From IMG/VR virus record IMGVR_UViG_3300044991_002272: 64,000 bases of DNA; one strand, 5' to 3'. The translations under genes were made by a program, and so were the position numbers. The stretch comes from a virus. Numbering within the stretch: the stretch's first letter is position 1; every line of letters begins with the position of its first letter. The notes under the pieces are model-generated. The model did not search any database. It was not told the origin of the DNA and saw only the letters and a program-made list of their open reading frames with translations. Positions 35,202 through 48,238 of the stretch are shown here, one piece after another.

Positions 35202-35774
35202 TTACTCCCCAGGTACTCCACCTCCACCAATTCCACCAGGCCCCAGCTGACCACCTTCTGTAGGTGGAACTGAACCTGGAGGCACATAAATGCCCAACGT
35301 TCCCCCAGCCCCTCCACCGATCAGTGTTATTCTAGCACGCCTAACACCAGGTGGCGCTGTCCATGTTTGTGGACCAGCAGTGCTGAAAACTGCTGCATAG
35401 TGTTGTTGATCAGTTATTTGTGGGCCTGTTGGCCCGGTATCACCATTAGGACCTCGATCGCCAGGAGGTCCTTTGTTTGGTCCAGGAGGTCCTTGAACTC
35501 CTGGGCTTCCAGGAATTCCTCCTCCTATACCAGGAGGACCAGGAGGACCAGGTGGACCAACAACAAATGTGTCATCTCCTGGTGGTCCTTGAGGGCCAGG
35601 GCTCCCTGCTGTGCCAATAATACCTGGAGGCCCAGGTGGTCCAATTTGTTGCCCAAAAAAGAATTGCTCTCCGTTGGCAGAGACTTTCAATACCAAGCCA
35701 GCTGGAACACCTTCCAGTTGCACATCAATAAGATCAGCTGATCCAACAACGCGGTTATCAAGTAGCTTTGGCAT
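35202..35774 (-). CDS. Collagen-like fibre protein paralog 3, N-terminal part
   Basis: [11 protein letters not shown] leader shared with paralogs, Gly-X-Y run, WTAPPGV...LIGGGAGG, then a stop mid-domain. Confidence 0.8.
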
Positions 35775-38242: not shown

Positions 38243-40000
38243 TTACTGTGTTTCAGTTGGAGGTGTTTCAGCACCTGGAGCAACTTCAGGTGTTTCAAAT
38301 CCCGGTGTCTCAAGCGGGGCTTCAGGAGGCATCTCAGGTCCACCCATACCAAAATCAGGCTCTGGTGAAGGGCGTATCCCTATTGAACCCAGTCCCACAC
38401 CCCTGTCTTCAATGGGGCTGGTGCCAGTCTTGCCTTTGACTTTGTCGTTGTTTTCTTCTTTCCACATCCGCTCATTTTCCAGAATATCTTCTTCTGTCCA
38501 TCCTAGATAACGCTTGAGCGCATATCTCTTGCTCATGTAAGCTCTTGCATCACTGTTCATAGCTGAACTGAAGAGGTTAACACGCTCAGTGTCAATGCTC
38601 ATGTTGCGATATTGACTGAAACTTTGTGGAACGTTAAATGCCAACTCAAACAAACTGCTGTGTACCTCAATGCCACGGAACTTCAAAAACAATTTAAATT
38701 CCATATCCAATGTTGGCGCAAGACTGTTCTGCAATCTTTGGCAATATTTGTTGAATCTATACTCTTGGATAAATGCTGTTCCCACTTTGCCATCGTTGTA
38801 GACTGCTGTGCCATCATCTGGTCCAGTGGGCAAATAGCTGCTGGGAATACCTAGCCCGCGCATCAACTTGTTGTTGAAGTATTTCAAGTCGTCAATAGTG
38901 CCCAAGTTTTCGCCAGCATTCAAAGTGTCAATAGTTGTGCCGCGTTGTTCACTGTTGGTTGCAAGGAAGAAATCTTCTGTAATGCTTATGGGGTTGTAGG
39001 CGCTGTCAATAATACTTGAGCCACCACCTGTGCGGTTTGGGAGTCGCCTTTGGTAAATTTCGTTTTTAACTCTTTCAACATACTGCATGGCACGTTGACC
39101 TTGCAGCTGACCCACGTCAATCTTAAACACTCTGCGCTCAGGTGCACGCACAATACGGTAAATGAGAATGCAGTCTTCCAACAGGTCTTTTTGTTTGTAA
39201 GTTTTGTAAACTGCCTCAATGATGCTGGTGCCAAAAGGCCAATATTGATCCAAGCCTTCACTTAAACTGAGATGCACCACGTGGTTGGCATCAATTGCCA
39301 TGCTGTTGGCTGGATTGTAAAATCTGCTGGTACGGCCGCCAGGTGTTGTGGGCTGTCCATAGTTGATGTTGCCTGCACCAGCTGCTGGGTTCGCACTTCT
39401 GGGATAACCTCCTGGGAAACTGTATTGATCATGCACAAGAGGGTTGGTTGCCACTAGACTTTGTAAATTGAAATCCAAATCTCTAATCACATATTGTTCA
39501 ATTTTTTTGCCTTGTGCCTCATTGACAATGATTTTTTCCACTTTGGCTGAATCCACCCACAACAGCTCATAGGTTTCTGGATCTCGGACGAAAAATTGAT
39601 CACCGTATTTGACAGTATTACGAAATATTTTGAAGATTCGTTGATTTAGTTTGTTGATGCTGCACCATTGTTGAAGTGCACTGGCTAAAAGTTCTGTTTC
39701 TGTTTCAGTAACATCACCTTTCCAAATAAATCGGAAAGGAATAGGCTCATCATCACTTTGGTTTTGTGTGCAAAACTCAGCAATAGTGTCCAAGCTGCGA
39801 TTGATTTCACTATCTAAATCAGCTTGTTCATAAGCCACATAGCGTTCAACCCGGTTTGGAGCACCAGCATAGACTTCAGGCAAATAGCTGCTGAATTTTG
39901 TAGTAGTTGCACCTTGACTGTTGTCTTTGTTGATTTCTGCTAGTCTTGCAGTGAGTCTAGCTTGACTCGGTACTGTTGTGAAATATTTTTTCCAAGCCAT
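38243..40000 (-). CDS. Portal protein (T4 gp20-like)
   Basis: EDCILIYRIVRAPERRVFKIDVG, EDFFL, IDDLKYFNNKLMRGLGIPSSYL. Confidence 0.97.
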   Translation of the reverse strand: MAWKKYFTTVPSQARLTARLAEINKDNSQGATTTKFSSYLPEVYAGAPNRVERYVAYEQADLDSEINRSLDTIAEFCTQNQSDDEPIPFRFIWKGDVTETETELLASALQQWCSINKLNQRIFKIFRNTVKYGDQFFVRDPETYELLWVDSAKVEKIIVNEAQGKKIEQYVIRDLDFNLQSLVATNPLVHDQYSFPGGYPRSANPAAGAGNINYGQPTTPGGRTSRFYNPANSMAIDANHVVHLSLSEGLDQYWPFGTSIIEAVYKTYKQKDLLEDCILIYRIVRAPERRVFKIDVGQLQGQRAMQYVERVKNEIYQRRLPNRTGGGSSIIDSAYNPISITEDFFLATNSEQRGTTIDTLNAGENLGTIDDLKYFNNKLMRGLGIPSSYLPTGPDDGTAVYNDGKVGTAFIQEYRFNKYCQRLQNSLAPTLDMEFKLFLKFRGIEVHSSLFELAFNVPQSFSQYRNMSIDTERVNLFSSAMNSDARAYMSKRYALKRYLGWTEEDILENERMWKEENNDKVKGKTGTSPIEDRGVGLGSIGIRPSPEPDFGMGGPEMPPEAPLETPGFETPEVAPGAETPPTETQ

Positions 40001-40065
40001 CAGGGTTCTGTTTCTCTCGGTTTTTGATATTTATGTGAGAAAAATACCCAGAAAAAAGATTACCT

Positions 40066-42417
40066 CTAGGCAAAGTCACCAATTATTCCAGCTGTGATAC
40101 GTGCTTGTCTTGCTTGATCTTGGATGTAGGGTGTTTGTGCTGCCACTGTGCTGTTCAAGGTAGTGACCATACCTAATAGTGCATCGTTTTGCGGTGCCAT
40201 TGGTGGCGCAAGACTAGTCATAGTGGCTTGGGCTGCCACTCTACTTACAAGTGCCGCCATAGCAGAAACATATGACGTGCTGCTCGCTTGCATTTCAACA
40301 AGTGCAGTTGAATCTTGTAATACGCTGCTGGCATCGCCAGTTTGCTCGCCCGGCTTAGCTTCTGCTGCACTTGCTGAACTTGTCCCATAGCCTGTGATGC
40401 CCCCGACTAATCCGCCAAGTAGGGCTCCTGCCAAGATACCACCAGGGCCTGCCCCTATGCCTGCAAGAGCTCCCGTTGCTGCACCGCCCAATGCACCGCC
40501 CAACCAACCATCCAAACCTACTTTACTACCTAGATATGCCCCTCCTAGTCCGCCCGCTACTCCTAGCCCGCCAGCGCCTATCAACCTGCCCCTCCCTAGT
40601 CCGCCCATAGTAGATGCTCCCTGCATAAGACCAGACATCATTCCTGTTGAGCCCAACATTGAAGTCAAACCCAAGCCTCCTCCTCCCAGTAACCGTGGTA
40701 TCGCAGCTTTTAAAGCTGTACTTGCCAGCAATTTAGGCATCAATGCCACAGCAGCTCCTGTGGCTAAGGCCGAAGCTGCTCCTGACATACCACTAGCAGC
40801 CATTCCATAAAATGAGTTTGCTGCTCCTGCGCCTGCGCCAGTTGCTGCTGCCAAGGGTTCAAGAACTTTCGTAAACAAGCCCAACTGTTGTGTAGCTGCA
40901 TAGAGCGCTGCCTTGAAGTCACCAGTGATACGAGCAGTATCCATAGTCACTTTTTGCATGGCAGTAGTAGCTCGATCTAAGTTTCCACCTCTGCCAGAGA
41001 AAATATTCAAAATTCTTTCCATGCCGCCAGGCCGGGCTGCTGCTGCTTGTGCCCGTTCAGCTTCTGGCAACATCTTGGCAAACATTTCTGCTCCACCAGC
41101 GTATGGCCCTCCTTGCTGTGCTTGTATTTGCAATCTCTCAGCACCAGGGCCTTCTGTCAAAGCCGTTTGAACTTGTTGCACTAAACGCATCGTATCTTCA
41201 GTAGTCCCAGTAGTCAATCCGCGAGACAGTGCTGTCATGGATGGCATCAATTCGCCCATGCTCATCATCGCCCGCGCCTGAGGATCACTAGGCATAAGGC
41301 CCATTTGCATACCTACAGCGATTCGAGCCATTGCAGGACCCATTTCACCAAACTGGCCCGCTATTACAGATTTATTGGCTTCAAGGCGTGCAGCCTCTTC
41401 AGGATTAGTTTTTCTTAACGTACGTATACGGAGCATAATTGCTGCATCTTCCGCAGCAGCTTTTTGTCTCGCTTGTATTTCTTTTCTGTCTTTGCCTGTT
41501 AACTCAGTCAATGCAGTGAGTTCTCGCACATATTTGACTGCACCTTCTCTTTGCATTTCAGTACTCATACCATAAGCTGAGCCGCCTTTGGCTAACATAT
41601 CAAGGAAAAAAGCTACAGACTCTCCTTGTTGAGAAAGGGTTTGGTTATACAAGCCAAATTCGCGTGTACTATCTTGAACCCCTCGCACCAATTTGACAAA
41701 TTTTTCTTCACCAACACCACTTATTGTTGTGCCAAACTGCCCCACAATTCCTTGAAACTCTTCCAGCTTCAACCCACTGCGGCCAACCATTTCCTGCATC
41801 TTTTCAAGGCTGCCGCCAAAAGTGACACCAGTGCTGGCCATTGCTTGAAAAGCTGGCATTCCGCTAGCAAAAATTCCCACACCGGCAGCAACTGTTGCTA
41901 CAGCTTTATTCAAAAATGAGAAACCTAAGCTAAGCTTAGTAGCATTGCCGCTTGTATCTCGAAACTTCATATCCAGGTAAGATAGGCTGCTTGTTACCCC
42001 ATCATATAACTTTGTGCTGTCAAACTTGCTCACCCTCTCCAAGCTGGATCGCAAGTCATCTACACTGCGTTTGTAACTGCCTTGAATCTCCTTATCAAAA
42101 TCTTGCATGCGCTGCTCATGACGCAGCTTATTGACTTCTGCACGTTTGGATTTTTCAGCCTCTATTTGAAGTTTAGTCAAGCCACTGGCTGCATCCCCTA
42201 AGGCTTCGTTGAATTCTTGCAGATTGGCCAAGTCTTCTTGTTTGACATCAGCTATTTTGGCCAAAAGCTTGTTGCTAGTGCTAACTTTGTCGCGCAGCTC
42301 TGCCAAGGTGCGATCTTGCGCCCAATTCTTGCTGATAGTTGTTAACTCACTAGCTGTAACATTCATACAAATTTCTCGCAATAGGAGACTAGCCATATTT
42401 AAGCCCCGTAAATACAA
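40066..42417 (-). CDS. Tape measure-like protein (true start probably 42396 or 42366)
   Basis: Long Ala/Gly-rich helical protein with glycine-zipper membrane segment, divergent from the gp26-like gene. Confidence 0.75.
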   Translation of the reverse strand: MYLRGLNMASLLLREICMNVTASELTTISKNWAQDRTLAELRDKVSTSNKLLAKIADVKQEDLANLQEFNEALGDAASGLTKLQIEAEKSKRAEVNKLRHEQRMQDFDKEIQGSYKRSVDDLRSSLERVSKFDSTKLYDGVTSSLSYLDMKFRDTSGNATKLSLGFSFLNKAVATVAAGVGIFASGMPAFQAMASTGVTFGGSLEKMQEMVGRSGLKLEEFQGIVGQFGTTISGVGEEKFVKLVRGVQDSTREFGLYNQTLSQQGESVAFFLDMLAKGGSAYGMSTEMQREGAVKYVRELTALTELTGKDRKEIQARQKAAAEDAAIMLRIRTLRKTNPEEAARLEANKSVIAGQFGEMGPAMARIAVGMQMGLMPSDPQARAMMSMGELMPSMTALSRGLTTGTTEDTMRLVQQVQTALTEGPGAERLQIQAQQGGPYAGGAEMFAKMLPEAERAQAAAARPGGMERILNIFSGRGGNLDRATTAMQKVTMDTARITGDFKAALYAATQQLGLFTKVLEPLAAATGAGAGAANSFYGMAASGMSGAASALATGAAVALMPKLLASTALKAAIPRLLGGGGLGLTSMLGSTGMMSGLMQGASTMGGLGRGRLIGAGGLGVAGGLGGAYLGSKVGLDGWLGGALGGAATGALAGIGAGPGGILAGALLGGLVGGITGYGTSSASAAEAKPGEQTGDASSVLQDSTALVEMQASSTSYVSAMAALVSRVAAQATMTSLAPPMAPQNDALLGMVTTLNSTVAAQTPYIQDQARQARITAGIIGDFA

Positions 42418-43284: not shown

Positions 43285-43517
43285 AGCTTCTCAGGGGTGA
43301 TCCTGTAGCCATCACCCAAATACTGAGAAGCTGTGAAAAAGAAGTGGAAATGATTGAAAGCGATATTGCCAACCTAGTGTATTACATGAACGGAGGACTC
43401 ACCTACAGTGAAGCTTGGCGTCTCACCACTTCACAGATGAAATCTTTGAGTGGAACTATTTCCAAACACTATGAGATGCAAGCCGAAGCTTATAGGAAGG
43501 CTCAATCAAAGAAGTGA
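43278..43517 (+). CDS. gp51-like ORF in the -1 frame of the gp26-like gene (absent from ORF track)
   Basis: Open frame RLKLLRGDPV...LVYYMNGGLTYSEAWRL...SKK; first in-frame start only about 23 codons in. Confidence 0.75.
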   Translation, partial: RLKLLRGDPVAITQILRSCEKEVEMIESDIANLVYYMNGGLTYSEAWRLTTSQMKSLSGTISKHYEMQAEAYRKAQSKK

Positions 43518-43619
43518 TAATTTTAGCTGGGCGTGATCTGGTATGAATCTCAATGATCTTATTGATGATATTATTGGATCTGGAATAGGATACTTGTTGG
43601 ACTGATAATAGTTCTGGGT

Positions 43620-44000
43620 ATTTCGTTAGGGAGGAAGTCACACTTCTCCCCACCGGGAGGAGAAGTTTGAAAAGGCTTTCGTATAGGGCTTCGGCCTGCC
43701 TGTCTCGTCTTGGGAATTGCTTCCAGCTGGCGGAGAACCTATTTCCAGCGTTCCTGACTCTCTTCTCGGACTTATGCTCATGGAGCTGCCTTCTCGGTTA
43801 TGTGCTCATCACACACGCAGGGAATTCAGTCAGACAGGCTGTTGACTGAACCCCTTCCAGCTTCACGGGACAGTGAGAGGCTGGATCCTTTTTGTTCACT
43901 TTTGTGGCGAGGGCATAGAACCGTAAACCCTCATACGCAATTTTCCCCGGCCTTCGCGCCTGGTAGATACGGATGGACACTACACCATCATATAAAGCCA
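43620..44000. ncRNA. Candidate large structured non-coding RNA (strand unresolved)
   Basis: At least six hairpins, a C(UUCG)G loop and a duplicated 20-nt unit in a gene-free gap of about 500 nt. Confidence 0.5.
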
Positions 44001-44023
44001 CTATGTTTTAAAAATATACTCTG

Positions 44024-44833
44024 TTATGCGTAGTTGCTGATTCTATAATTGCCTGGACTACGTGCTGTGCTGTCTAGGTATTTCAAAAGATAATTGTTTT
44101 TTGTATTTTTGAAGTCAATTACCCAAGGTGTGTTGTATTCACAGAATCTACCACTCTCTTGCTTGACTATTGCTGTTGTCCATCGATTGTATTCGTTAAG
44201 GTTAAAATGCGGAATAATAATGGGTTTGGTAGTTAACGGAGTCCAAATTTCTGTATGTTGTTCAGTGTTGTTGTATTTGTATTTGATTTCATTACGAGGG
44301 ATCTGTGCATGACGTTTGTTGCTGATTTCCAGCTCACTCAAGCTGCTGGGTGGTGTCTTGTAAGCCACCTCAATTATATCGCTTGATTGGGGATGAGCCA
44401 AAATGTCTGCTTGCTCTTTGTAAAAATCAATAACTGCTCTAGCCATCTGTTTTTTGGCTTCTGGAATCATAATCCAGCGATTGGCTCCTGCAGATTCAAA
44501 CATCATAATTTGCGCTTCGGTCAAAATTGTTTTTTGTGTGAGTCTGTCAAAAGCAACTGGAAAATAACTTTTCAGTTGTTCAGGCCATTCTTGAGGCTTT
44601 TTCACCAATTCGCGAATGTTGAGATTGTATTTGGCTAGATCACAAAAGAGTGATGCTTGATCGTGTGTGATGTTGAGAATAGTTTGTGGAAATGCTCTTA
44701 CACGACTGCTAAAGGTTCCTACAAGAGTATTGTAAAATCCCAACTCTTGCCGGAAAAAACTATTGAGCCGATTTTGATCTACTGGATCAACTACAATAAA
44801 AATGCTGCGGTGTTGTGGCTTGTTGTGCTTCAT
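44024..44833 (-). CDS. Hypothetical protein, possibly TnpB-like WED/REC lobe without RuvC
   Basis: Likely start MKHNKPQHRS (269 aa); FFRQELGFYNTLV helix recalls the TnpB N-terminal RFVYN helix; no RuvC acidic motifs seen. Confidence 0.45.
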   Translation of the reverse strand: MKHNKPQHRSIFIVVDPVDQNRLNSFFRQELGFYNTLVGTFSSRVRAFPQTILNITHDQASLFCDLAKYNLNIRELVKKPQEWPEQLKSYFPVAFDRLTQKTILTEAQIMMFESAGANRWIMIPEAKKQMARAVIDFYKEQADILAHPQSSDIIEVAYKTPPSSLSELEISNKRHAQIPRNEIKYKYNNTEQHTEIWTPLTTKPIIIPHFNLNEYNRWTTAIVKQESGRFCEYNTPWVIDFKNTKNNYLLKYLDSTARSPGNYRISNYA

Positions 44834-44925
44834 TTGAAATGCTCTTTTGTTATTTTGATTATAGCCATCTAAAACTATAAAATCAAAGACTTCCAGAGCT
44901 TTTTCTGGATTACAGGAAAAAACAT

Positions 44926-45441
44926 ATGGCAGGGTCCAAAGGCAAGGCAAAAGGAAATGCAGGCGAATTACGGATAGCCAAGTTTCTCACAACGTTATAT
45001 GAAGCCAAATTTATTAGGGTGCCTAATTCTGGTGCCTTCATTGGAGGAGCAAACACCAAGAGAAAAGACACTATGGATGCTACGCAAATCAGCTACTTCA
45101 AAAGTGATCTCATTCCACCTTCCCATATGAAAAAGCTGGTGATTGAAAGTAAGTTTTATCAAGACTTTCCGTGGCATCGACTCATGTGCAATGGAGATAT
45201 CAAACAACTGGATGCTTGGATAGAACAGACATTGGATGTCTGTGACCCAGAAGACCTCTGGTTCGTGGTCATACGCATCAATCGCAAAGGAAGTTATGCT
45301 TGTTTTGATCAAAAACATTTGGACAGCTTCACTGTAGAGAACCATGCTCGTTACAAAACCTTTGTAATAACAGAGTTTGAGCCATTTTTTGAACAAAACA
45401 AGCTTAAGATTGCAGAATTGGCCTACACTGCTGGTGTATAA
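44926..45441 (+). CDS. Holliday junction resolvase-like PD-(D/E)xK nuclease
   Basis: KGKAKGNAGELRIAKFL, SDLIPP, IESKFY. Confidence 0.75.
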   Translation: MAGSKGKAKGNAGELRIAKFLTTLYEAKFIRVPNSGAFIGGANTKRKDTMDATQISYFKSDLIPPSHMKKLVIESKFYQDFPWHRLMCNGDIKQLDAWIEQTLDVCDPEDLWFVVIRINRKGSYACFDQKHLDSFTVENHARYKTFVITEFEPFFEQNKLKIAELAYTAGV

Positions 45442-47210
45442 TCCCAATCAAATCTAGTAAAATTATCTTCTTTCACTACAGTCAAAATATTGTTCACACG
45501 ACTTTGGAGTTCTTCTCTATGTGAGATCAACAAAATGTTCTTGTTCCGATCTCTGCTCATAGCCTTAAGCGTCTCTAGAGATCTTTCAAGTCCTGTGCTG
45601 TCAAGTCCCACATCAAGGATCTCATCAACAGCCATGAAGTTGATGCTGGTGTTCATGTTTTCAAAAATGTCTCGGAATGCCCAGCTGAGTGCCAAACAAA
45701 CTCTTGTGCGCTCACCTCGGCTGAGACTGTCAAAGTCAAAGTCTACGCCCATATGCATGATCTCAACTCCCAAGTCGTTGCTGAATTTAACTTGGTGTGG
45801 CAACATCAATCCAGCTAGATATTCACCCAGTCTGTGATTCAAGTAGCTGAGGTTTTGATCAATAATACGCTTTCGGATGAAGCTGTCTTTGTTTGTTAGC
45901 AGCTTCAAGAGAAACTCTTGATGGTCTTTGAGTTGGCTGAGTTCATTTAGTGAATCATAAGTGACTTCTTGCAGTGTGTCATTTAAATTACCCACTTGGG
46001 CTTGATAAGGATTGGTTTCAAGCTTAAGTTTGTCCAGTTCACCACTAAGAAGTGTGAGACTGTTTCGATGCTCATATGCCTCATCAATGCTTTTGTAAAA
46101 TGTTTGGTTTAGCGATACAGCACTAGACAGACCCATGAGCTCATCCAGTTCTTGTGTCAAACTCAGGCATTCCTGTTCCAGTGTTTGAATGCTGCTGTCC
46201 AGTTTGGTAATTTTGTGCTCAAGGTCGTCCAGCAGATGTGTTTGCTTCTCGTCATGAATCTTTTGACCACACATTGCGCAGTTGTGGTCTTGAATTTGAC
46301 TATACTGAGTTAACCAGTTGTTTTGTTGCGCCTTCAGCTGTGTTCCATGCTGTGTTTTTGTTTGGCTTTGGCTGCGCACATTCTTCAATGCTGTTTGAAG
46401 TTCACGATACACAAGATTGTCTTTGTGACTTTGAATTTCCTGCTCAACATCAAGATGACTCAAAGCATCTAGTGCATTTTCCAAGTCTTGAATTTTGTTC
46501 TGATGTTGAGTATCCCACTGTTGGGTTTTTTGATTCAAACTTTCAATAGTGCTCAAAATACGTGTATTGCTGTTTTTGATAGTATGTATTTTGAACTCTT
46601 CTTGTTCAATAGTTTGTTTGGTTGTTTGAATAAGCTTTTTGAGGTTTTCTGCCTTTTGAGACAGTAATGTAATTCCCAACAGCTCTTCAATTATTTCTCG
46701 TTGTTTTCCAGCGCCCATGCTCAAAAATGGCTCAGTATAGGTGTTCAAAGCCACAATGTGTTTGAACATGGTGTGGCTGATGCCCAATACCTTCTCAATC
46801 TCTTTCTGAGTATCTTTGTTTTCGCCTTGAGCCTCGTCAGCACTTTTGTTTTCATTTACTGATTCATCATTTACAACATAGCGGAAAAAACTGGGCGCAC
46901 GGCCACGTTCAATTTTGTAGCTGTTGCCGTGGGCTTCAAACTCAATACTCACCACCATGTTCTTTTTGTTGATGCTGTTGATGAGATTGTTTTTCTTGAT
47001 GTTAGTAAGAGCTTGTCCATACAGGGCATAACAAATGGCTGAAATCAGTGTTGATTTGCCAACACCATTCCGGTTGCCGTTGCCACCCAAGTCTAGATTC
47101 TCGCCCAATACAAGAGTCAAGCCAGGTTGTGTGAGAGTAACTGATTGTGTAACAGCACCCACACTCATGAAGTTTTTGATTGTGACGTTTTTGAGGATGA
47201 TCAATTTCAA
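45423..47210 (-). CDS. Recombination ATPase (T4 gp46 / SbcC / Rad50-like)
   Basis: NGVGKST Walker A, CAMC hook, LSRGE signature, AVDEILD Walker B. Confidence 0.95.
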   Translation of the reverse strand: MKLIILKNVTIKNFMSVGAVTQSVTLTQPGLTLVLGENLDLGGNGNRNGVGKSTLISAICYALYGQALTNIKKNNLINSINKKNMVVSIEFEAHGNSYKIERGRAPSFFRYVVNDESVNENKSADEAQGENKDTQKEIEKVLGISHTMFKHIVALNTYTEPFLSMGAGKQREIIEELLGITLLSQKAENLKKLIQTTKQTIEQEEFKIHTIKNSNTRILSTIESLNQKTQQWDTQHQNKIQDLENALDALSHLDVEQEIQSHKDNLVYRELQTALKNVRSQSQTKTQHGTQLKAQQNNWLTQYSQIQDHNCAMCGQKIHDEKQTHLLDDLEHKITKLDSSIQTLEQECLSLTQELDELMGLSSAVSLNQTFYKSIDEAYEHRNSLTLLSGELDKLKLETNPYQAQVGNLNDTLQEVTYDSLNELSQLKDHQEFLLKLLTNKDSFIRKRIIDQNLSYLNHRLGEYLAGLMLPHQVKFSNDLGVEIMHMGVDFDFDSLSRGERTRVCLALSWAFRDIFENMNTSINFMAVDEILDVGLDSTGLERSLETLKAMSRDRNKNILLISHREELQSRVNNILTVVKEDNFTRFDWDYTPAV

Positions 47211-48238
47211 ATACTCTGATAGATTTCAATCAAGCGTTGTTTGTTCATTGTAGTGCTTTCAATACTATTCAAATGTGACACCACAATTGAGTCAACGCTT
47301 TCAAAATTGATTTCACTGTCATCAAGTACAGTGTCATCTCCATCACTTCTGCCATGGATGAAACTCACATCCAAGGCAGCTAGTTGAGTTTCAAATAACT
47401 CTCTAATGAAGGCAAGGTCTTCATAAGTTAAGTCAGCATCTACTGTTATCCGTGCGAAAGTTTTGTTGTCTATCAAGCCGGTAGGATCCTGAAGTGCCTC
47501 TGTAAGGTTATACGTGCGATACTTGGGTGCACCAAGCCATTTTTCAAATATGGGATCAGTTCCAGGAGTCCAGATCATCAACCCTCTATCATCGTCTCCC
47601 GCATCTGCAAAGTTGTGAGGAAAGGCATTGCCAATATAACAAATGTTGCCCTTTCGCTGCCTTTTGTGAAAATGCCCACTGAACACCAATTTTTGATTTT
47701 GAAAGTGTTCACTGTTCAAGCCGCCATGATCGGGCATTTCCACCATGGCATTCATCCGGAACTTGGCAATTTCAGCATGACAAAACAAATAAGGCTGTTT
47801 GATTTTTTGAATCAACTTATACTCATCACCCACCAACCAAGGAACAAAACAATAGTCTTTGACTGTGGTGATTTTGTCAATTAGGTGAATATTTGAAAAA
47901 TCCTGTGCATAGGGAATACTGTGCAGCTCTAGAGTATCTCGAAAATAGAGATCATGGTTGCCCAAGAGCATTATCACATTGTCAAAATTGTTGTTTAGCA
48001 GTTTCATGCCATTGTGGCTGTAATTGAGTGTGCTGATGTTCACACTGTTGCGGTTGTGACTCCAGTCGCCCAAAAACAACAGTGTTTTGATTTTCAGCTC
48101 TTGTGCTCGTTTGACCACAAACTCCAAAAACTCAGTACACCAAGTGTTGTGCTGTTTGGAGTTGTTCCGCATGCCAAAATGCACATCAGTTATGGCAATT
48201 ACTTTTGAAAAATCAACATTGTCTAGATTGATAGTCAT
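47207..48238 (-). CDS. Recombination nuclease (T4 gp47 / SbcD / Mre11-like)
   Basis: TDVHFG, FLGDW, LGNHD, SGHFH metallophosphoesterase motifs. Confidence 0.95.
   Translation of the reverse strand: MTINLDNVDFSKVIAITDVHFGMRNNSKQHNTWCTEFLEFVVKRAQELKIKTLLFLGDWSHNRNSVNISTLNYSHNGMKLLNNNFDNVIMLLGNHDLYFRDTLELHSIPYAQDFSNIHLIDKITTVKDYCFVPWLVGDEYKLIQKIKQPYLFCHAEIAKFRMNAMVEMPDHGGLNSEHFQNQKLVFSGHFHKRQRKGNICYIGNAFPHNFADAGDDDRGLMIWTPGTDPIFEKWLGAPKYRTYNLTEALQDPTGLIDNKTFARITVDADLTYEDLAFIRELFETQLAALDVSFIHGRSDGDDTVLDDSEINFESVDSIVVSHLNSIESTTMNKQRLIEIYQSI

Follow-up and report, generated by a model that had tools for sequence, protein, structure and literature searches.

A probable TnpB descendant without a nuclease lobe, encoded beside a large pseudoknotted RNA in uncultivated T4-like phages

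A 64,000-nt stretch of viral DNA (IMG/VR record IMGVR_UViG_3300044991_002272), referred to here as the window, carries T4-like phage genes that include those for the portal (Portal_T4, 38243-40000) and a baseplate-hub protein (PF12322, 42451-43284), as well as the recombination genes SbcC/gp46-like (45423-47210) and gp47-like (47207-48238). Near-identical viral contigs of 60-78 kb are rated by CheckV as 16-21% complete, and the genome is therefore of jumbo size. On the minus strand, an ORF of 269 aa (44024-44833) and the DNA on its 3′ side are flanked by a conserved 57-aa ORF (43344-43517, plus strand) and a PDDEXK_15 nuclease gene (44926-45441, plus strand). The first-pass annotation, made from the sequence alone, had placed this locus between tail-assembly and recombination genes, and the placement holds, with the baseplate-hub gene on one side and gp46/47 and the PDDEXK gene on the other. 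The stop codons of the 57-aa and 269-aa ORFs are separated by 506 nt (43518-44023); no other stretch of the window that lacks an ORF of at least 90 aa is as long (the runners-up measure ~310-336 nt). The gap without a credible gene that the annotation had described is thus real, and its observation is confirmed. The GC content of the gap is 0.52, versus 0.38-0.44 in the flanks, and its folding energy is unremarkable, with MFE z-scores of -1.5 (plus strand) and -1.2 (minus strand). Because neither score is significant, folding energy alone does not show an RNA here, and the evidence for one is comparative.

The ORF begins with the ATG at 44833, a start that agrees with the N-termini of homologues and with a predicted sigma-70-like promoter upstream of it (TTGATT-17-TATAAT, 10/12 in a consensus scan; 44858-44886, minus strand); an alternative 308-aa form starting at a TTG would overlap the divergent neighbouring gene. 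The protein matches no Pfam or PHROG family. Even at an E value of 10 it finds no Pfam match at all, RuvC (PF01385) included, and the ORF contains no match to the TNB/zinc-ribbon family PF07282. A weak PF07282 match in near-identical contigs (13 bits), considered as a separately encoded nuclease half, proved to be the zinc ribbon of an unrelated, inserted homing-endonuclease-like gene and was set aside. A whole-library profile search yields a family of 195 cluster representatives, of which the 150 listed are 109-345 aa long, mostly 230-345; the homologue search of the family found no member of at least 502 aa. A PDB search with a shallower profile and a protein-atlas feature search (best score 0.82) were uninformative. 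The best PDB sequence for a profile of 133 members is Parasitella Fanzor1 (E 8e-4, 22 bits, profile positions 16-105), a single, marginal hit that is independent of any structure model and covers the first β-strand and the first REC helix described below.

An AF2 model of the protein, built from 133 family members, has a pLDDT of 92.9 and a pTM of 0.89; an earlier model from 15 close sequences (pLDDT 74.8) had given no usable structural match. In the model, strand 1 of a WED domain (residues 10-14) is followed by a REC helical bundle (17-146), a WED β-barrel (~175-243) and a short, disordered basic tail, so that the protein ends 26 residues past the last WED strand. Searching the model against 48,161 PDB representatives with VIA-align placed TnpB, Cas12 (f, m, l, k, p, b, e, g, n, h, X) or Fanzor chains at all of the best 25 positions (Z 5.8-9.7), among them dCas12f (9n9c, Z 9.7), Fanzor2 (9b0l, Z 9.7) and ISDra2 TnpB (8h1j, Z 9.5, 162 residues aligned); the first unrelated chain appeared at rank 26 (Z 5.7, 94 residues aligned). 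A second structural look again returned this superfamily at all of its best 50 positions, headed by CnCas12f1 (Z 10.2), and 160/166 residues of 8ex9_A, a TnpB structure in which RuvC is not resolved, align to the model. Cas12k/f/n/g and TnpB also dominate a Foldseek list, but with E values of at least 8e-3. From a viral structure library, two uncharacterised phage proteins were recovered that are true family members, followed by TnpB/Fanzor 'transposases'. Identity to all of the matched chains is 5-12%, with rmsd values of 3.6-6 Å.

In ISDra2 TnpB, the WED domain comprises residues 1-12 and 117-176, REC (13-116) lies between WED strands 1 and 2, and RuvC starts at residue 185 (PMC10097598). 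This insertion of REC after the first WED strand, a hallmark of the superfamily, is present in the predicted structure, residues 3-243 of which align to ISDra2 TnpB 1-173 and likewise to Cas12f 1-208 and Fanzor2 131-307 (Z 9.5-10.2). The alignments to the TnpB chains 8h1j, 8exa, 8ex9 and 8iaz end at chain residue 173-176, before RuvC, and those to the larger Cas12 chains extend further, with no RuvC counterpart in the model. From the alignment to TnpB 1-173 and the published domain limits it follows that the predicted protein consists of WED and REC and stops where RuvC would start. A RuvC nuclease domain with its D-E-D triad is absent, as judged from the end of the ORF, the alignments and the 150 listed representatives, which are at most 345 aa long. 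The first-pass annotation had guessed by eye at a WED/REC resemblance and at a protein that ends at the RuvC boundary, and the predicted fold bears out both points; of the two segments it had singled out, FFRQELGFYNTLV falls in the first REC helix and WVIDF forms the last WED strand of the model. Since Z-scores of 9-10 are unremarkable when taken singly, the case for the superfamily rests on the purity of the hit list and on domain topology. On these grounds, the protein very probably belongs to the TnpB/Cas12/Fanzor superfamily by common descent, and we refer to it as 'half-TnpB'.

Comparative alignments of the gap delimit a structured RNA scaffold of ~390 nt (43615-44005, minus strand; from CAUAGUGGC to CCUAACGAAAUACCCA), which begins ~18 nt past the stop codon of the 269-aa ORF and does not overlap it. 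In the aligned gaps of relatives, these ~390 nt are better conserved than the adjoining coding DNA, the nucleotide identities of RNA/ORF to the window being, relative by relative, 96/85, 93/73.5, 84/68, 82/70 and 65/60%. The alignment of the RNA contains indels of 1, 2 and 7 nt, which exclude coding, and the region is therefore non-coding. When nine sequences are folded jointly with RNAalifold, 92 pairs result, of which 30 show compensatory changes, and the scaffold comprises about 12 helices together with two long-range pseudoknot pairings. Five helices hold in all 14 lineages, with 97.4% of cells paired versus 34-46% when the partner is slid, and 20 of 25 pairs across these lineages have changed on both sides, a level reached by 0 of 500 shuffles. 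Covariation thus substantiates the structured RNA that had been proposed for the gap. Five of the six hairpins first listed (43642-43666, 43825-43850, 43857-43884, 43909-43932 and 43972-43989) match helices with compensatory changes, and the remaining one, the C-UUCG-G hairpin at 43687-43696, is not retained as a hairpin in relatives. The RNA also bears long invariant unpaired stretches that are kept down to 26% protein identity.

Two of the five conserved helices are long-range, one extending from a hairpin loop (A) and the other into a hairpin loop (B), and the RNA is therefore pseudoknotted. In pseudoknot A, the 5′ arm CCUGUC (43833-43838, minus strand), located in the loop of the 43855-43819 hairpin, pairs with the 3′ arm GACAGG (43699-43704, minus strand); across 14 sequences, both partners vary in 6/6 pairs, and pairing is kept in 95% of cells. 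In pseudoknot B, the 5′ arm GAGAA (43791-43795, minus strand), which lies inside the invariant AUAACCGAGAA, pairs with the 3′ arm UUCUC (43733-43737, minus strand) in the conserved loop AAAUAGGUUCUCCG of the 43749-43726 hairpin, with 4/5 pairs changing on both sides and 100% of cells paired. An invariant AGG (43889-43887) may furthermore pair with the CCU of the 3′-terminal CCUA (43630-43628). As this candidate pairing hardly varies, we infer rather than observe it; it recalls the pseudoknot that adjoins the guide in omega-RNA. Of 815 cells, 767 pair (69 as G-U) when the RNA is read on the minus strand, and 714 when it is read on the plus strand; the corresponding alifold energies are -84.7 and -73.5. 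The G-U pairs and the consensus energy therefore favour the minus strand, which is that of the ORF, for a predicted RNA whose strand the first-pass annotation had left open.

Across the whole window, no Rfam model matched at its gathering score. The RNA reaches no Rfam gathering threshold, including those of omega-RNA-type RNAs, HEARO, GOLLD, ROOL, group I introns, RNase P and tmRNA, and a permissive scan of the gap (E up to 10) returned chance matches only, the best being PtaRNA1 with 22.6 bits versus a threshold of 47. ARAGORN detected no tRNA or tmRNA. Likenesses noticed by eye to the P/Q/R/S elements of group I introns and to the 'AAGUCCG' motif of RNase P were dropped, as neither was accompanied by a model match.

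The ORF has 15 close homologues in metagenomes, and the gene order in their contigs is gp47, gp46, PDDEXK, ORF, a gap of 420-800 nt, a small ORF, baseplate hub, a large Gly/Ala-rich protein and portal. More distant relatives of the protein (26-42% identity) have a diverged but homologous RNA at the same place. Among the lineages with enough DNA downstream of the ORF, the RNA follows it on the same strand in 11 of 13, from 100% to 26% protein identity, and the association of RNA and ORF read from the window thus recurs in relatives. In lineage L047, a 95-aa ORF and hairpins come between the ORF and the RNA, which is displaced by ~430 nt; the contig includes no more than the 5′ part of the RNA (nhmmer E 6e-5). 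Neither CM R1 nor nhmmer detected the RNA in L008 (AT-rich, 43% protein identity), which has an 800-nt gap, in L010 or in L046; the last of these keeps the protein with no gap after the ORF, and so has no room for the RNA. Several lineages have TAGGCAC repeats upstream of the RNA that are the RNA's own.

In all lineages, the locus occupies the same position between the PDDEXK_15 gene and the baseplate-hub gene, and it is single-copy, with one per contig. Its flanks contain no transposase or TnpA, as had been remarked at the outset, and by mobile-element criteria it is neither an IS200/IS605 nor an IS607 element. The PDDEXK neighbour was considered as a partner and rejected: neither its sequence type, of which there are two, nor its orientation varies in step with the ORF, and hence no coevolution between them is seen. 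No relatives were found in a set of one genome per prokaryote species or, with five different family members as queries, in GenBank phages, in which there is also no DNA match; a metagenome scan added only 7 loci. The family is known so far only from uncultivated phages, and its 195 clusters are phage-borne as far as seen.

Behind the scaffold lies a variable tail (43518-43614, minus strand) that cannot be aligned between phages sharing 93-96% identity in the scaffold; it measures ~95 nt here, versus ~20 nt in close relatives. In subfamily B, the corresponding variable, AT-rich stretch of ~50 nt is followed by two terminator-like hairpins. Sequence directly past the scaffold is partly conserved within each subfamily and is not freely variable. 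By analogy with TnpB, a guide would be located in this putative tail. A search of nine related viral contigs with up to 3 mismatches recovered the RNA genes themselves only, and no guide target for the tail was found in the window or in these contigs, which represent only 7-21% of their genomes; over the same window and partial contigs no TAM was found, and the tail has no promoter target that we could find. An exact-word search of the tail against the window gave a 14-mer at 35723 and a 12-mer at 40042-40053, upstream of the late-type promoter of the portal gene. The 12-mer was rejected as a guide target and judged a chance match, because in L011, L012 and L004 its site either is absent or fails to covary.

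To our knowledge, all characterised TnpB, Cas12, Fanzor and TldR proteins have a RuvC fold, even where it is inactive. The closest parallels to the locus as a whole are found in IS200/IS605 TnpB, whose pseudoknotted RNA is read from the same strand as the gene, at or beyond its 3′ end, and structurally in ISDra2 TnpB (8H1J, 8EXA, 8EX9; PMC10097598), which likewise has REC inserted behind the first strand of the WED barrel (Z 9.4-9.5, 160-167 residues). Unlike IS200/IS605 TnpB, half-TnpB has no RuvC, TNB zinc ribbon, TnpA or transposon ends, and its locus is single-copy and fixed in the phage chromosome; the scaffold is also ~390 nt long, versus 116 nt in ISDra2, and does not overlap the ORF. 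The best structural matches are Cas12f enzymes in complex with sgRNA (CnCas12f1 8HR5, AsCas12f 8J12/7WJU, dCas12f 9N9C; Z 9.6-10.2), which have an N-terminal WED-REC and an RNA that, as here, is large relative to the protein. In contrast to half-TnpB, for which there is neither an array nor a nuclease lobe, Cas12f acts as a dimer that possesses RuvC and TNB and operates together with a CRISPR array and tracrRNA. Domesticated relatives provide a further comparison, namely TldR proteins (10.1101/2023.11.30.569447; 10.64898/2026.09.22.753285) and other exapted, dead TnpB/Cas12 proteins, which include Cas12k, Cas12m and sigma-factor-associated dCas12f (PMC10691335, PMC13472631). They are immobile, non-cleaving TnpB derivatives with a guide RNA in a long 3′ region, and some of them are phage-borne. 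All retain RuvC in degenerate form, in which triad residues are mutated or only RuvC-III is lost, and in the broad TnpB/Cas12 survey and the TldR papers RuvC is dead or C-terminally truncated and never wholly absent. The half-TnpB family, by contrast, lacks the RuvC lobe altogether and is associated with a far larger RNA; it does not have the full architecture with degenerate RuvC that, together with a promoter-targeting guide, defines TldR. GOLLD, ROOL and HEARO (Rfam) are likewise large, intricately folded non-coding RNAs carried by phages, but the RNA described here does not match them and is tied to one protein family. We found no paper that describes a WED+REC-only TnpB relative or such an RNA.

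These observations suggest that the locus probably encodes a TnpB-derived, nuclease-free, RNA-associated protein and thus an RNP of a kind found in none of the papers searched. The best explanation as a whole, which we hold with moderate confidence, is that a WED+REC-only descendant of TnpB and its cognate RNA of ~390 nt form a non-cutting RNP. The ORF would derive from the TnpB/Cas12 superfamily, having kept WED and REC and lost the entire RuvC-TNB nuclease lobe, and the downstream RNA would be omega-RNA-like but larger, with its two covariation-supported pseudoknots. Formation of an RNP by the two is likely, by analogy, since the layout, in which the gene is immediately followed on its own strand by a structured RNA, copies that of TnpB/omega-RNA and TldR/gRNA. 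The pair occupies a fixed place in the phage chromosome, bounded by gp46/47 and the PDDEXK gene and, at the opposite end, by the baseplate-hub gene, and would have been inherited vertically in a clade of uncultivated jumbo T4-like phages from freshwater and groundwater. Such an RNP would be unable to cut DNA by the TnpB mechanism. Its most likely activity would be to bind a nucleic-acid target through a segment of its RNA without cleavage, resembling TldR, Cas12k or Cas12m, except that the RNA would stand in for the lost protein lobe; guide-directed targeting as such, an argument by analogy, we put forward only tentatively. As far as it can be tested in silico, the interpretation offered by the first-pass annotation is supported.

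In TnpB, WED and REC hold the TAM duplex, and they also contact part of the guide-RNA scaffold and the heteroduplex over its first base pairs. RuvC contributes half of the surface that binds omega-RNA and half of the channel for the heteroduplex (PMC10097598). A protein without RuvC is therefore unable to hold guide and target as TnpB does, and either the larger RNA may compensate for the loss or the particle may work differently. According to one rather improbable reading, the pseudoknotted RNA has taken over the job of the lost lobe and the particle represents a new class of RNA-guided effector, in which a minimal WED+REC protein would supply only duplex/TAM recognition and the RNA the rest. 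The RNA might then hold the guide-target duplex as an R-loop that regulates transcription or primes or marks replication, or, alternatively, might recruit a nuclease in trans (e.g. the adjacent PDDEXK) or be catalytic itself.

Other explanations depart from guide-directed binding by a non-cutting RNP at different points. An RNA-centred role without a guide, in which the particle forms but the RNA is its working structural or catalytic core and half-TnpB a chaperone or anchor, is unlikely, though several features are in keeping with it: the RNA is 2-3x the size of the TnpB omega-RNA scaffold (116 nt in ISDra2; PMC10097598), its long invariant unpaired stretches and two pseudoknots persist in distant relatives as ribozyme cores do, the sequence behind the scaffold is partly conserved within subfamilies, and the window and nine partial contigs yielded no guide target. 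Yet no known ribozyme or large RNA family in Rfam matches it, the tail becomes abruptly unalignable between near-identical scaffolds, as at a scaffold-guide boundary, and every characterised relative of the protein fold uses its RNA as a guide. It is also conceivable, at a still lower level of probability that we regard as slight, that RNA and protein are neighbours with separate tasks, the RNA being a 3′-UTR/cis-regulatory element, an independent phage ncRNA, or an origin or primer RNA, and the protein a nucleic-acid binder that needs no dedicated RNA. Gene order is conserved throughout the region, so that adjacency alone is weak evidence; the intervening ORF and hairpins in L047, the protein without a gap behind it in L046 and the TAGGCAC repeats of the RNA in several lineages would all fit this account. 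Against it stands the recurrence of the same order and strand in 11/13 lineages, with the RNA directly downstream as in TnpB/omega-RNA and TldR/gRNA, and the fact that WED is the RNA-scaffold-binding module in all solved relatives.

Two further accounts concern descent. It is very unlikely that the fold likeness is convergent, with an OB-type barrel and a helical bundle of another origin and no descent from TnpB. The low identities and wide deviations to the matched chains and the lack of a Pfam match are what this would predict, and by the aligner's own notes a Z under 8-13 can arise from common arrangements; but one superfamily fills both the best 25 of 48,161 and the best 50 of the second look, the unusual insertion of a helical bundle after barrel strand 1 is held in common, an independent Fanzor1 profile match covers the same junction, and a structured RNA lies where it would be expected. 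The view that the gap is the decayed 3′ half of a full-length tnpB, a functionless pseudogene remnant, can draw on the position of the gap where RuvC would be encoded and on the overlap of omega-RNA with the 3′ end of the gene in TnpB (PMC10097598). It is extremely improbable and already contradicted by the covariation seen in sequence alignments, and the nucleotide conservation above that of the coding flank, the indels of 1, 2 and 7 nt and the retention of the RNA to 26% protein identity speak against it as well.

A conserved WED+REC-only family would constitute the most reduced protein portion of this superfamily that selection is known to have maintained, a half-TnpB paired in most of the lineages checked with a much larger RNA. 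The pair would bear on how far function can move from protein to RNA in RNA-guided systems, and would be a case in which lytic jumbo phages have domesticated transposon machinery within a core gene block. Should the particle bind targets via its RNA, it would be a very compact programmable binder; should it not, a TnpB module would have been reused for another RNA-based task.

A minor observation concerns transcription of the RNA. In addition to the predicted promoter of the ORF, the consensus scan of the window sequence gave a weaker promoter-like match (TTGACT-17-AATTAT, 9/12; 44090-44118, minus strand), which lies inside the 3′ end of the ORF, ~85 nt upstream of the RNA, and could give rise to a separate RNA transcript.

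Many of the related phage lineages carry one to three copies of the sequence (A)TAGGCAC a short way 5′ of the start of the conserved structured RNA, with a spacing that varies from 3 to 65 nt. Such copies reside at positions 1368-1409 of locus L047, 3558-3590 of L022 (minus strand) and 3774-3792 of L038, and the motif lies near the RNA, on its upstream side, in L030, L031, L034 and L004. The same 8-mer forms the conserved loop of the RNA itself in L045, L029 and subfamily B. The motif could function as a promoter, as a signal for processing or as a site of self-binding. No (A)TAGGCAC is found 5′ of the RNA in the window itself, across which the motif is not enriched (8 observed versus 6.75 expected).

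At the opposite end of the RNA, the distance from the scaffold to a small convergent ORF is approximately 95 nt in the window (43518-43614), as opposed to approximately 20 nt in the closest relatives, and the additional length looks like a lineage-specific insertion. This ORF (43344-43517, plus strand) encodes 57 amino acids and matched no Pfam or PHROG family; its counterparts (45-76 aa) are retained in relatives, with the RNA on one side and the baseplate-hub gene on the other. A 783-aa protein encoded between the hub and portal genes (40066-42417, minus strand) is conserved in all relatives (704-786 aa), matches neither a Pfam nor a PHROG family and has a long, Gly/Ala-rich C-terminal half. 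It may represent a tape-measure or gp29-like protein. The portal gene is preceded in all lineages by an ATAAATA box resembling T4 late promoters (minus strand of window 40001-40065; 9715-9800 in L001; equivalents in L011, L012, L004, L005 and L008). Ahead of this box in the window and L001 is a sequence similar to the 3′ end of the RNA (AAATACCCAGAA), a likeness that we judged to be due to chance.

Within the half-TnpB protein, a nearly invariant motif, Y..K/.Y.D (YLLKYLD), occupies residues 248-254 (window ~44072-44092, minus strand), C-terminal to the final WED strand, in a stretch that is unstructured in the model. This motif might represent a remnant of RuvC's first strand, including its aspartate.

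The half-TnpB gene is adjoined, also in distant lineages such as L046, by a PDDEXK_15 nuclease gene (window 44926-45441, plus strand; PHROG 'RusA-like resolvase'; L014:712-1203, L005:2213-2707 and L008:4418-4918 in relatives). This neighbor exists as two sequence types sharing only 26-27% identity. It is inverted in L014 and L015, now occupying the strand of the half-TnpB ORF, and this flip is independent of how closely their ORFs resemble that of the window. Relatives also carry selfish inserts (L012:9629-10822; L005:2817-3578; L051:1441-1600). The portal gene of L012 contains an intein-like segment (a weak Pfam match), L005 has an inserted DUF723 homing-endonuclease-like gene that separates the PDDEXK gene from the ORF, and in the sister contig G001 a zinc-ribbon gene is inserted after gp46.
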